7,461 bases of DNA from a virus (IMGVR_UViG_2778261152_000006), one strand, 5' to 3'. Shown: positions 1 through 7,461, counted from the stretch's first letter. The notes: a model not told the origin generated them from the sequence alone. Made by a program: numbers and translations.

Positions 1-201
1 TTCTTGATCTGTATCTTTATCTGTATCTTTATCTGTCGTGACTCGTCGTGACATGTGCGTGACATTTCGTGACGCGCTCACCAGGAGGTGGATATACACT
101 GCCATCACTGTTGCAATTGGCTGCCCTGACACCCTGGCAATTGTTCGCCACTTAGGGTCATTTGGCATGTCATGCCATAATCTGAGCCAGGCGTTAGCCA
201 T
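1..201 (-). CDS. Replication-initiation-like protein (YdaU/DUF1376-like), N-terminal 67 codons only; continues beyond window start
   Basis: Not in the ORF track because it runs off the edge. My own minus-strand translation from ATG (plus 199-201) gives MANAWLRLWHDMPNDPKWRTIARVSGQPIATVMAVYIHLLVSASRNVTHMSRRVTTDKDTDKDTDQE with no stop to position 1. SD-like GAGGTGA lies 5 nt upstream. Position directly downstream of the CII-like gene matches the lambda cro-cII-O layout. Family assignment is from memory of the motif pattern, not a search. Confidence 0.5.
   Translation of the reverse strand, partial: MANAWLRLWHDMPNDPKWRTIARVSGQPIATVMAVYIHLLVSASRNVTHMSRRVTTDKDTDKDTDQE
7..36. repeat. 12 bp tandem direct repeat ATCTGTATCTTT x2.5
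   Basis: atctgtatcttt atctgtatcttt atctgt read directly. Lies inside the YdaU-like coding frame (minus strand), where it encodes DKDTDKDTD. Confidence 0.8.
37..73. repeat. Four CGTGAC (GTCACG on minus) hexamer repeats phased at 10-11 bp; iteron-like
   Basis: CGTGAC at 37, 47, 58 and 68. The helical-turn spacing and the adjacent AT-rich tandem repeat resemble an iteron plus AT-rich origin arrangement. Confidence 0.6.
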
Positions 202-698: not shown

Positions 699-963
699 GA
701 ATCAAGCTCCTAGAAAGTGGTTGTGTTAACATTTTGGTATCTTCCAGCTCGGGCCAAATATTCATCCAATCAAAAGGCCTTAGTTGCTGACGTGTAACTT
801 CACCATTACTGGCTCGCTCAATAAGGACACATAACGATGCCCCTAACACTTGACCTTTACTCAATGCCTTTCTTAGATAACCGATGCTGGTACCACACTC
901 GCATGCAAACATACGCTGTTCATCTGACGAAAGAGAATTGAGAAATATTCTTAATTCTTCCAT
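682..963 (-). CDS. Cro-like HTH regulator (YdaS-family analogue), 93 aa
   Basis: 93 aa ORF with an HTH-like segment (ECGTSIGYLRKALSKGQ) and a ...GEVTRQQLRPFDW tail typical of Cro/YdaS-family proteins. Strong SD AAGGAG 6 nt upstream of the ATG on the minus strand. Divergent from the repressor gene across a 100 bp operator-bearing intergenic region. Confidence 0.7.
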   Translation of the reverse strand: MEELRIFLNSLSSDEQRMFACECGTSIGYLRKALSKGQVLGASLCVLIERASNGEVTRQQLRPFDWMNIWPELEDTKMLTQPLSRSLIHENQA

Positions 964-992
964 AGCTACTCCTTAGTAAACACAGCAAAGAA

Positions 993-1069
993 CACCCATA
1001 GGTAAACAAAAGTCAATACCCACAGGTTGTTTACCTTGCAGTAATCGCATCTATTATTTACCTATGGAC
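993..1069. promoter_or_regulatory. OR-like operator cluster between the divergent Cro-like and repressor genes; repeated TACC-N4-GGTA / GGTAAA half-sites
   Basis: CCATAGGTAAA at 996-1006 and its reverse complement TTTACCTATGG at 1057-1067 (11/11). GGTAAACAA at 1001-1009 and its reverse complement TTGTTTACC at 1027-1035. The last site overlaps the repressor ATG at 1064. Confidence 0.5.
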
Positions 1070-1483
1070 AAATATGAATTTAGACGACAGCAACTCATCA
1101 AAATTCGTGATGAGAAATGCGATGGTAAAGCGGTTAACGTGGCCAGAAAGATCGGGCGCGAGCCTTCTTATGTATCAAGAATGTTGTACCCAGAGGGGAA
1201 AAAGGGAAAAAAACGGATCGCTGATGATATGGTGGAGATTATCGAAGAGTCCTTTGGGTTACCCCGGGGATGGATGGATGGTATCGTTTCATCATCAACG
1301 AACACAGCCTCCAGTTATGAAACAAGGGTTCTAACGCCACGACAACGTATTTTTTTAGATCTCTTAGACGAACTGCCAGAAAGTGAAGCGGATAACTTAT
1401 TAAAAACTCTTGAAGAGAAAAAACAGTATTACAATATGATCTACGAAGAAATCCGTAAAAAGAAAGCACAAAACGCATCATAG
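1064..1483 (+). CDS. Prophage repressor (CI/RacR analogue, HTH), 139 aa
   Basis: 139 aa ORF divergent from the Cro-like gene, in the position of racR/cI. No in-frame alternative start upstream (stop at 977-979) and no SD, suggesting a leaderless mRNA. Shorter than the 158 aa I recall for K-12 RacR, so probably a variant immunity allele. Confidence 0.7.
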   Translation: MDKYEFRRQQLIKIRDEKCDGKAVNVARKIGREPSYVSRMLYPEGKKGKKRIADDMVEIIEESFGLPRGWMDGIVSSSTNTASSYETRVLTPRQRIFLDLLDELPESEADNLLKTLEEKKQYYNMIYEEIRKKKAQNAS

Positions 1484-1525
1484 CTCACCAAACAACTAGT
1501 CACCAGTTAAGACACCGCAAAAAGT

Positions 1526-1574
1526 TACCCATGGGTATTTACTTTTTAAATACCTATGGGTATCCTTCTTTTCA
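1526..1574 (+). promoter_or_regulatory. OL-like operator palindrome downstream of the repressor gene; also folds as a 15 bp stem-loop followed by a T-rich tract (possible terminator)
   Basis: TACCCATGGGTATTT (1526-1540) and the reverse complement of 1548-1562 (TACCCATAGGTATTT) match 14/15, the mismatch being a G-U wobble in RNA. Loop 1541-1547. Followed by ATCCTTCTTTT. Core ACCCAT(A/G)GGTA is the same motif as at 995-1004. Confidence 0.45.
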
Positions 1575-1737
1575 TACCAACCCACCCCGCCCCACAGAAT
1601 GCAGGGCAATACTTCGAGTTACCAGGCAGTGGTCAGGGGTTAAGTAGCCAGCCCGAGGCGTAAGAACATGACGGCGGGATTCAAATTTTGCAGTGCAGCA
1701 GTTAGTTCCGCCACCCGGCGTTAAGGGGAGAGATAAG

Positions 1738-6407: not shown

Positions 6408-7086
6408 GCAACCACCAATCGCAAAAGCCGATCTGCAAAAAACCCAGGGAAACCGTGCACCAGCAGCAGTTAAAAATAGCGACGTGATTAGTTTTATTAA
6501 CCAGCCATCAATGAAAGAGCAACTGGCAGCAGCTCTTCCACGCCATATGACGGCTGAACGTATGATCCGTATCGCCACCACAGAAATTCGTAAAGTTCCG
6601 GCGTTAGGAAACTGTGACACTATGAGTTTTGTCAGTGCGATCGTACAGTGTTCACAGCTCGGACTTGAGCCAGGTAGCGCCCTCGGTCATGCATATTTAC
6701 TGCCTTTTGGTAATAAAAACGAAAAGAGCGGTAAAAAGAACGTTCAGCTAATCATTGGCTATCGCGGCATGATTGATCTGGCTCGCCGTTCTGGTCAAAT
6801 CGCCAGCCTGTCAGCCCGTGTTGTCCGTGAAGGTGACGAGTTTAGCTTCGAATTTGGCCTTGATGAAAAGTTAATACACCGCCCGGGAGAAAACGAAGAT
6901 GCCCCGGTTACCCACGTCTATGCTGTCGCAAGACTGAAAGACGGAGGTACTCAGTTTGAAGTTATGACGCGCAAACAGATTGAGCTGGTGCGCAGCCTGA
7001 GTAAAGCTGGTAATAACGGGCCGTGGGTAACTCACTGGGAAGAAATGGCAAAGAAAACGGGTGATGATGCCAACTTACTGATTTAG
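6400..7086 (+). CDS. recT: RecT recombinase, truncated by IS1: 220 native codons plus 8 IS1-encoded codons (GDDANLLI), then stop
   Basis: [32 protein letters not shown]... matches RecT up to ...WEEMAKKT. The IS1 terminal repeat then begins at 7060. Full-length RecT is 269 aa as I recall it. The ATG at 6400 overlaps the recE stop (ATGACTAA). Track ORF 6343-7086 starts at an upstream ATG that I regard as not used. Confidence 0.9.
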
Positions 7087-7114
7087 TGTATGATGGTGTT
7101 TTTGAGGTGCTCCA

Positions 7115-7390
7115 GTGGCTTCTGTTTCTATCAGCTGTCCCTCCTGTTCAGCTACTGACGGGGTGGTGCGTAACGGCAAAAGCACCGCCGGACATCAGCG
7201 CTATCTCTGCTCTCACTGCCGTAAAACATGGCAACTGCAGTTCACTTACACCGCTTCTCAACCCGGTACGCACCAGAAAATCATTGATATGGCCATGAAT
7301 GGCGTTGGATGCCGGGCAACCGCCCGCATTATGGGCGTTGGCCTCAACACGATTTTCCGCCATTTAAAAAACTCAGGCCGCAGTCGGTAA
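7115..7390 (+). CDS. insA: IS1 InsA (transposition regulator), 91 aa
   Basis: [91 protein letters not shown] is the IS1 InsA sequence. Confidence 0.95.
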
Positions 7391-7461
7391 CCTCGCGCAT
7401 ACAGCCGGGCAGTGACGTCATCGTCTGCGCGGAAATGGACGAACAGTGGGGCTATGTCGGG
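7309..7461 (+). CDS. insB: IS1 InsB (transposase frame), N-terminal 51 codons; partial at window end. Active product is the InsAB' frameshift fusion
   Basis: -1 frame relative to insA translates [51 protein letters not shown], matching the InsB N-terminus. Open to the end of the window. Confidence 0.8.
7366..7372 (+). other. IS1 A6C programmed -1 ribosomal frameshift motif (AAAAAAC) at the end of insA
   Basis: TTAAAAAAC at 7364-7372 sits in the insA/insB overlap, where the IS1 frameshift window is known to lie. Confidence 0.7.

Follow-up and report, generated by a model that had tools for sequence, protein, structure and literature searches.

The segment at positions 1526–1566 of the window (the whole 7,461-nt stretch of viral DNA analysed here) very probably corresponds to OL/PL, the left operator–promoter, in a lambdoid prophage of the Rac type whose immunity type is not that of K-12. 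Two copies of an operator motif, TACC-N4-GGTA, lie there beyond the repressor gene as seen from OR and ahead of the early operon, which is codirectional with the repressor gene, and the pair appears to fit the OL/PL class on every sequence-level feature that could be tested. The sequence-only reading had proposed a layout like that of phage lambda, with operators to either side of the repressor gene and the downstream, OL-like one controlling the ydaG operon; all sequence tests support this proposal.

The window belongs to a Rac-type lambdoid prophage of Escherichia coli, of which it represents the early region; positions 650–2100 of the window are found with 100% identity in strain H7. Genes were assigned from ORF calls, annotation and family searches. 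The minus strand carries a ydaT-like gene (273–698) and a cro-like gene of the YdaS family (682–963), the latter divergent from the repressor gene and joined with it in one mosaic immunity module. The repressor gene itself (1064–1483, plus strand), annotated as ‘hypothetical protein’ and encoding 139 aa, was recognized from ORF calls together with domain and family comparison. Further along the plus strand, a leader with a C-rich 5′ end (1574–1737) is common to K-12 Rac, O157 prophages and phage Tritos, i.e. it is kept regardless of the immunity type, and ydaG (1738–1872; ORF calls and annotation) opens the early operon, which runs ydaG, ydaF … kilR, ydaE, racC, recE, recT; sieB is listed among the window's genes on the minus strand between ydaF and kilR. 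The overall order is cro-like gene (minus), OR, repressor gene (plus), site pair, leader and ydaG…kilR…recET. As there are no rexAB-type genes between the repressor gene and the predicted OL, the latter starts only 42 nt past the stop codon. At the gathering threshold, no Rfam family matched anywhere in the window; in E-value mode, the region 1480–1900 returned only sub-threshold microRNA-precursor models, which reflect a generic hairpin, appear on both strands and are meaningless. The leader (1574–1745) was also considered as a structured RNA, e.g. a put-like element, and discarded, as its fold is no better than that of shuffled sequences (z = −0.07).

The operator motif of the region upstream of the repressor gene had been reported to recur downstream of it, and indeed two copies are present at 1526–1562. 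The sequence given for this stretch is correct (TACCCATGGGTATTT at 1526–1540, a 7-nt gap and AAATACCTATGGGTA at 1548–1562), and so are the distances: the repressor stop codon ends at 1483, 42 nt ahead of 1526, and the interval between 1562 and the ydaG ATG (1738) measures 175 nt. While the recurrence of the motif holds, its description as one 15-bp palindrome does not; the stretch is more aptly seen as a pair of palindromic sites of 12 bp each, whose starts lie 25 bp apart. The predicted distal site (OL2 by the lambda convention; TACCCATGGGTA, 1526–1537) is a perfect 12-bp palindrome, at the end of which a putative −35 hexamer starts, and the predicted promoter-proximal site (OL1; TACCTATGGGTA, 1551–1562) is a palindrome with one mismatch, whose terminal TA opens a putative −10 hexamer. 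In the window, copies of the consensus TACC-N4-GGTA start at 993, 1017, 1032, 1526 and 1551. Searching the window for TACCCATGGGTA with up to three mismatches, we found seven matches, compared to 2.09 expected, and none of 200 shuffled sequences reached this number; five of the seven are located in the two intergenic regions that flank the repressor gene. A literature search for the site sequences returned no paper that contains them in a relevant context.

Around the pair, the distal site adjoins the −35 and the proximal site overlaps the −10 of a predicted promoter, TTTACT-17-TATCCT, which points into the early operon. Both hexamers match the consensus at four of six positions: TTTACT (1538–1543, plus strand) is PL-like, and TATCCT (1561–1566, plus strand), following a 17-bp spacer, keeps the TA at positions 1 and 2 and the T at position 6 of a −10 hexamer. 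With a total of 8 of 12, they fall below the cut-off of our consensus promoter scan (9 of 12), which made no call at 1538–1566; the assignment as PL is based on the conservation of this geometry in related prophages and not on the consensus scan. From the hexamer spacing, transcription is predicted to start at the CA of CATACC (1573–1574, plus strand). Homology to K-12 Rac begins at about 1573, i.e. at the predicted start, which would accordingly mark the edge of the immunity module. Just 5′ of the distal site, at about −55 to −51 from the predicted start, lies an A-tract (1519–1523, plus strand), which is possibly UP-element-like; read on the minus strand it forms the T-run of the hairpin discussed below.

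Upstream of the repressor gene, three predicted OR sites share the motif: CACCCATAGGTA (993–1004, −72 from the repressor ATG), which overlaps a PR-like −10 on the minus strand; TACCCACAGGTT (1017–1028, −47), directly after which, on the minus strand, follows the PR-like −35 TTGACT (1016–1011); and TACCTTGCAGTA (1032–1043, −32), with the outer bases TACC/AGTA, which overlaps a PRM-like −35. The PR-like promoter thus mirrors the geometry of the downstream pair on the other strand, with a site, TTGACT and a site overlapping the −10, which suggests that PR and PL are built alike in inverted orientation, as in lambda. The PRM-like promoter (TTTACC-16-TATTAT, 1030–1057, plus strand) was detected by the scan, and the distance from OR to the ATG is fixed across loci. 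Its −10 ends 7 nt ahead of the ATG at 1064, close enough for the repressor mRNA to be predicted as leaderless; precedents for this are lambda cI and PaaR2 (PMC8630535).

To follow the pair beyond this prophage, one genome per species was scanned, which yielded 23 loci with relatives of the N-terminal domain of the repressor (39–82% identity), among them loci from Yersinia, Edwardsiella, Brenneria, Klebsiella, Aeromonas, Burkholderiales, Alcaligenes and Stenotrophomonas. These loci were chosen by the N-terminal domain alone, and sites were scored solely at the eight outer positions of TACC-N4-GGTA, allowing at most one mismatch. Across the 23 loci the motif accompanies the N-terminal domain, and in most of them sites occur at −72, −47 and −32 from the repressor ATG. 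Including the window (24 sequences), a pair spaced 24–26 bp is found in 20, compared to 0.06 in shuffled sequences (maximum 2), and 15, 24–26 and 39–40 bp are the only spacings observed. A second pair, with a spacing of 25–26 bp, lies downstream of the repressor gene in 17 of the 24 sequences, from Enterobacterales to Xanthomonadales. In all 17, a TTG/TTT hexamer directly follows the first site, in the same position relative to it as in the window, the spacer measures 17–18 bp, and the −10 reads TAnnnT with its TA provided by the last two bases of the second site; a conserved CAT is present at the offset expected for the transcription start. Only position 1 varies in 42 downstream-pair sites (A for T in 3). 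The distance of the pair from the repressor stop codon ranges from 42 bp in the window to about 1,874 bp, which speaks against a function bound to the repressor gene's 3′ end.

In E. coli, 822 of 5,426 complete genomes (about 15%) contain the element, and eight variants of it were compared; H7, O111:H- 11128 and O157 Z1626 are examples of E. coli with this immunity type. All substitutions within the five sites are confined to the central 4 bp, and TACC/GGTA, TTTACT and TATCCT are invariant save for one TATGCT and C993 of the window. Changes restricted to the centre are the pattern expected of half-sites contacted by a protein and separated by a non-contacted centre.

Based on sequence comparison, we accept the 139-aa protein as the prophage repressor, without a self-cleavage domain. 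It matches phrog_5736 ‘transcriptional regulator’ (E = 4e-70), and its residues 1–86 share 65% identity with the cI protein of phage mEp043. The putative N-terminal DNA-binding domain is common to mEp043 cI, and the C-terminal part to the CI of phage Tritos. A profile of the N-terminal domain aligned over the whole domain to the phage repressor 5d50, at a marginal E-value of 0.015, with CI and Cro entries next. A Pfam search with the 139-aa protein gave no match, and it lacks a Peptidase_S24/LexA-like self-cleavage domain; longer relatives (223–233 aa) carry a C-terminal Peptidase_S24 domain. A single-sequence search of the PDB gave only marginal matches to ADAR1 Z-alpha (E = 0.08), which were set aside for the phage-repressor profile match.

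A counterpart with a full set of landmarks is phage mEp043, which shares with the window the TACC-N4-GGTA operators, the OR layout, the pair geometry with its −35 and −10 and the cI N-terminal domain. Its genes and elements follow each other as cI, a small ORF, a classic terminator (GCCCGCAAAGCGGGCTTTTTT), the site pair (TACCTATAGGTA-TAGACA-…-TACCTGTAGGTA/TATATT), boxA and boxB, and gene N. The boxA and boxB hairpin between pair and gene N, GCCCTGAAGAAGGGC, is a sequence we take to be that of lambda nutL. As mEp043 is annotated with a complete early gene set and the pair is located just before nutL and N, the pair is placed at PL there. The separate terminator implies that the cI operon of mEp043 is terminated by an element other than the pair. 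Differences from the window are the C-terminal Peptidase_S24 domain of its cI, the separate intrinsic terminator before OL, and nutL and N after PL. Our literature search on mEp043 found no published operator analysis.

K-12 Rac offers a comparison of a different kind, since its backbone is homologous to the window from the leader on and includes the same downstream operon, while the sequence upstream of about 1573 differs, with an unrelated repressor and operator. At the homologous position we found two RacR operators, TAGGCATAGCCTA and TAGGCATTACCTA, 25 bp apart; the published RacR operator consensus is TAGGC-n3-GCCTA (PMC9638921). The first site adjoins TTGACA and the second overlaps TATAGT, which together form a near-consensus promoter (TTGACA-17-TATAGT, 11 of 12 matches), not followed by a T-rich tail. 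In a MAFFT alignment, the K-12 and window pairs are in register, gap-free, 47 bp before the shared CATACC. The recent RacR papers we covered describe only the operators in the racR–ydaS intergenic region, and we found no account of the downstream pair or its promoter in them. Loss or lowering of RacR in K-12 raises ydaG, ydaF, kilR, ydaE and racC 40–70 fold (PMC6765115; PMC11014345), an effect in which direct control at PL is not separable from indirect ones such as prophage excision or Cro-like action. Silencing of racR by CRISPRi gives the same derepression of the whole leftward block (bioRxiv 10.64898/2026.09.06.749655).

Phage Tritos provides a third case. Its repressor combines a different N-terminal domain (HTH_3) with the C-terminal part seen in the window repressor, and its own GTAC-containing repeats precede the same leader, together with what we read as a promoter-like pair of hexamers, TTTACA-17-CATTAT. 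Hence the repeats that precede this leader at the aligned position differ among three immunity types (window, K-12 RacR and Tritos), which indicates that the operator has been replaced along with the repressor, whereas its position and the downstream transcript have remained unchanged.

In lambda, operators built on a common motif lie to either side of the repressor gene, and OL overlaps the promoter into the early operon; OR1 and OR2 are 24 bp apart. The likeness of the window to this system comprises the flanking arrangement of the operators, a predicted OL promoter that is codirectional with the repressor gene and leads into kil and recombination genes, adjacent sites about 24–25 bp apart from centre to centre, a repressor mRNA predicted to be leaderless and the inverted PL/PR architecture. 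The lambda-like layout anticipated for this region therefore stands, except for the number of sites, which is two downstream of the repressor gene instead of three in lambda. The sites also differ in kind (12-bp TACC-N4-GGTA instead of 17 bp), no N gene or nut site follows downstream in the Rac lineage, and the window's repressor is without a LexA-like cleavage domain. A further parallel is the Rac-like prophage CP-933P of E. coli O157:H7, in which YdaS and YdaT act as Cro and CII analogues and OR-like operators are present at a repressed promoter of the PL type; repression by PaaR2 of this PL, which carries OL1–3, was shown experimentally with gfp fusions (PMC8630535). CP-933P differs in its GTTTAGTAA-type repeats, its three OL sites and a toxin–antitoxin pair in the repressor operon. 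As the PaaR2 operator motif is different, a CP-933P immunity type was ruled out for the window.

A second property of the element had been pointed out, namely a strong hairpin followed by a T-rich tract, and this is borne out: the predicted energy is −22.9 kcal/mol (z = −5.07), and none of 200 shuffled sequences folds as well. The arms of 1526–1562 are complementary at 14 of 15 positions and can be extended to a 16-pair stem with five G-C pairs; behind it follows TCCTTCTTTT (1563–1572, plus strand; 7 of 10 T) as a candidate U-tract, and a simple terminator scan flags the same 37 bp together with this tail. A stable stem-loop with T-rich sequence behind it, located where a gene ends, resembles an intrinsic terminator, and the sequence-only reading had accordingly offered the terminator of the repressor gene, an operator or both. 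The scan speaks for the terminator part of this idea; the lack of conservation of the T-run and of significant compensatory variation speaks against it. If the element were solely the intrinsic terminator of the repressor transcript, the likeness to the operator motif would be meaningless and no promoter would be present. Such a role would suit the location 42 nt past the stop codon, an interval devoid of further hairpins, and the window's hairpin is the strongest of 17 related pairs (relatives range from −5 to −17.7 kcal/mol). Moreover, insulating the kil operon is a real need, met in K-12 by the Rho-dependent trac/timm, which ends the PRM–racR transcript and whose failure is lethal through kil expression (PMC4150792). 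We nonetheless find this explanation hardly credible. Because each site is itself palindromic, two nearby copies necessarily pair, which accounts for the inverted-repeat appearance of 1526–1562, and the stem needs no separate explanation; the same motif makes up the OR sites, where a terminator is not expected. In relatives, the pair is found up to ~1.9 kb from the repressor stop codon with genes in between, and mEp043 and two further loci (L016 and L023) possess a distinct terminator of the classic GC-rich type shortly before it. Most relatives have no T-rich tail, the Klebsiella loci that do have one show weak hairpins (−5 to −10.4 kcal/mol), and the equivalent pair of K-12 lacks a T-tract. 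In the window itself the T-run is interrupted by C, and the tail reads TCCTTCCTTT in five of the eight E. coli variants. Finally, co-variation of the central positions between the two sites is not significant (43 of 84 pairs, compared to 36.8 ± 4.2 in permutations; P = 0.089). The A-rich stretch 5′ of the distal site gives the element the look of a two-way terminator; as this stretch is present in nearly all relatives, with or without a T-tail, it is more simply understood as a promoter-upstream feature.

It is possible, albeit rather unlikely, that the element has a dual use: besides being the OL/PL operator, it would also end the repressor transcript in the E. coli lineage, by means of the RNA hairpin and T-rich tail, whereby it would replace the separate terminator of mEp043-type phages; bound repressor could then act as a roadblock, too. 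All of the operator evidence applies equally to this possibility, the 42 nt from the stop codon to the distal site offer no other terminator candidate, and the need for insulation known from K-12 (PMC4150792) would be served. The stem reaches past the 12-bp cores by TTTA/TAAA (1538–1541 and 1547–1550), an extension that is absent from the PR copy and from a Yersinia locus (L004), and the tail is rich in T. On the other hand, the U-tract is poor, with UCCUUC in its proximal part, and eroded in most E. coli variants; the stem extension is altered to GGG or GAA in two strains; and the central positions give no significant covariation. Rho-dependent termination, as in K-12, could serve instead, and the T-rich tract also covers the promoter from its −10 to the predicted +1, while the PR copy is likewise followed by a T-rich tract, TTCTTTGC. 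Independently of this, part of the sequence constraint on the 37 bp could stem from a terminator role. We consider it very unlikely that the cro-like (YdaS-family) protein or another regulator, and not the 139-aa repressor, is the main occupant of the sites. In lambda and CP-933P, CI-like and Cro-like proteins act on common operators (PMC8630535), and here the cro-like gene belongs to the same immunity module; the motif, however, tracks the repressor N-terminal domain over 23 loci that were picked by this domain alone. Binding of repressor and of the cro-like protein at the sites is not mutually exclusive.

For the pair as an OL/PL element, we infer the following mode of action. Each of the two 12-bp sites would be bound by one dimer of the 139-aa repressor; with 25 bp between the site centres, binding would probably be cooperative, by analogy with lambda. 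Occupation of the proximal site (1551–1562) would cover the spacer and the −10, and a dimer at the distal site (1526–1537) would abut the −35. The sigma-70 promoter TTTACT-17-TATCCT would, when free, start transcription near 1573–1574 and fire into the leader, ydaG and ydaF…kilR-racC-recE-recT; with both sites filled, RNA polymerase would be blocked, and the toxic kilR and the recombination genes would stay silent in the lysogen. The same repressor would act on the three OR sites 0.5 kb away. A cro-like protein may use the same sites, and looping between OL and OR is conceivable.

By sequence alone, these data provide the full predicted operator set of one immunity type, i.e. three OR and two OL sites of the form TACC-N4-GGTA, arranged in a fixed geometry with the promoter hexamers. 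This immunity type occurs in ~15% of complete E. coli genomes and also in prophages of many other Proteobacteria, and our literature search found no published operator analysis for it. The layout is that of the lambda textbook case, to which it adds a member but no new principle. Exact coordinates are now available for the silencing proposed for the kilR/recET early operon in Rac-type prophages of this kind. Should the element have the dual use considered above, a single 37-bp element would serve to insulate the toxic kil/recET operon as well as to repress it, and changes in the central bases of the operators would tune both functions at once. As a by-product, the analysis yielded the equivalent RacR operator pair with its predicted near-consensus promoter between racR and ydaG in K-12.

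In the K-12 Rac prophage (locus L003, from the K-12-lineage strain MC1061), the interval between racR and ydaG contains two operators matching the RacR consensus, TAGGCATAGCCTA and TAGGCATTACCTA, which lie 25 bp apart (L003 2454-2495) and bracket a near-consensus, ydaG-directed promoter, TTGACA-17-TATAGT. The RacR literature that we found treats only the operators located between racR and ydaS and does not discuss the racR-ydaG pair.

When window 955-1075 and 1478-1600 are aligned with their E. coli variants, substitutions cluster at the four centre positions of every operator, while the intergenic DNA around the operators shows about 97% conservation in the OR region. This pattern suggests that the operator centres would be the positions of the switch with the greatest freedom to change, or those under the most active tuning. 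In E. coli JNEC-KY180 (L033, approximately 739-790) a CAAACAAC repeat is expanded in tandem directly 3' of the repressor stop codon, adding 24 nt to the interval between stop codon and OL and leaving the operator sites untouched.

The PR-like promoter, which targets the cro-like and ydaT-like genes, has its -10 element on the minus strand at window 989-994. This element reads TGTTCT because base 993 is a C; the other seven E. coli variants that we compared all carry a T here, so that their -10 reads TATTCT. Base 993 doubles as position 1 of an OR site. C993 may be a promoter-down, or an operator, mutation in the cryptic prophage of the window.

On the plus strand, the PRM-like promoter TTTACC-16-TATTAT (window 1030-1057) ends 7 nt 5' of the repressor ATG at 1064, and a Shine-Dalgarno sequence is missing. 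The short distance from the -10 to the start codon together with the missing Shine-Dalgarno sequence predicts a leaderless repressor mRNA, similar to the lambda cI and PaaR2 mRNAs. The distances of the OR sites to the repressor ATG are fixed at -72, -47 and -32 in nearly all related loci. A weaker copy of the motif with three mismatches, TACCTATGGACA, lies across the repressor start codon (window 1059-1070); in K-12, RacR operator O3 is likewise placed over the start codon of racR. The weak window copy could serve as a low-affinity site for autoregulation.

Compared with the loci L028 (2420-2839) and L008 (2501-3184), the window repressor (1064-1483) has a mosaic domain make-up: the DNA-binding domain at its N-terminus also occurs in the LexA-like (Peptidase_S24) CI proteins of mEp043 and many prophages, and its C-terminal half in the CI of phage Tritos, whose own N-terminal domain (HTH_3) is unrelated. 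As the window repressor is devoid of a cleavage domain, induction probably does not proceed via RecA-mediated self-cleavage.

The leader of about 165 nt at window 1574-1737, with its C-rich 5' end CCAACCCACCCCGCCCCACAG, is kept across Rac-like prophages and phages of differing immunity types, and is 76% identical in a record labelled Actinobacillus phage. Its predicted fold is not unusual (z = -0.07) and it has no Rfam match. As Rac kil is known to be silenced by Rho, the leader may be a Rho-loading region.

At the right end of the window (7060-7461), recT is cut short at its 3' end by an IS1 element that begins at 7060 with its left end GGTGATGATGCCAACTTACTGATTTAG, followed by insA. In strain H7, which is identical to the window over 650-2100, IS1 is instead located within kilR; therefore, the window derives from a different strain. 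The left end (window 1-70) contains short direct repeats, ATCTGTATCTTT twice and then CGTGAC four times at intervals of about 10 bp, within the 5' part of the minus-strand replisome-organizer (O-like) gene. These repeats look like origin iterons of the kind present in lambda ori.
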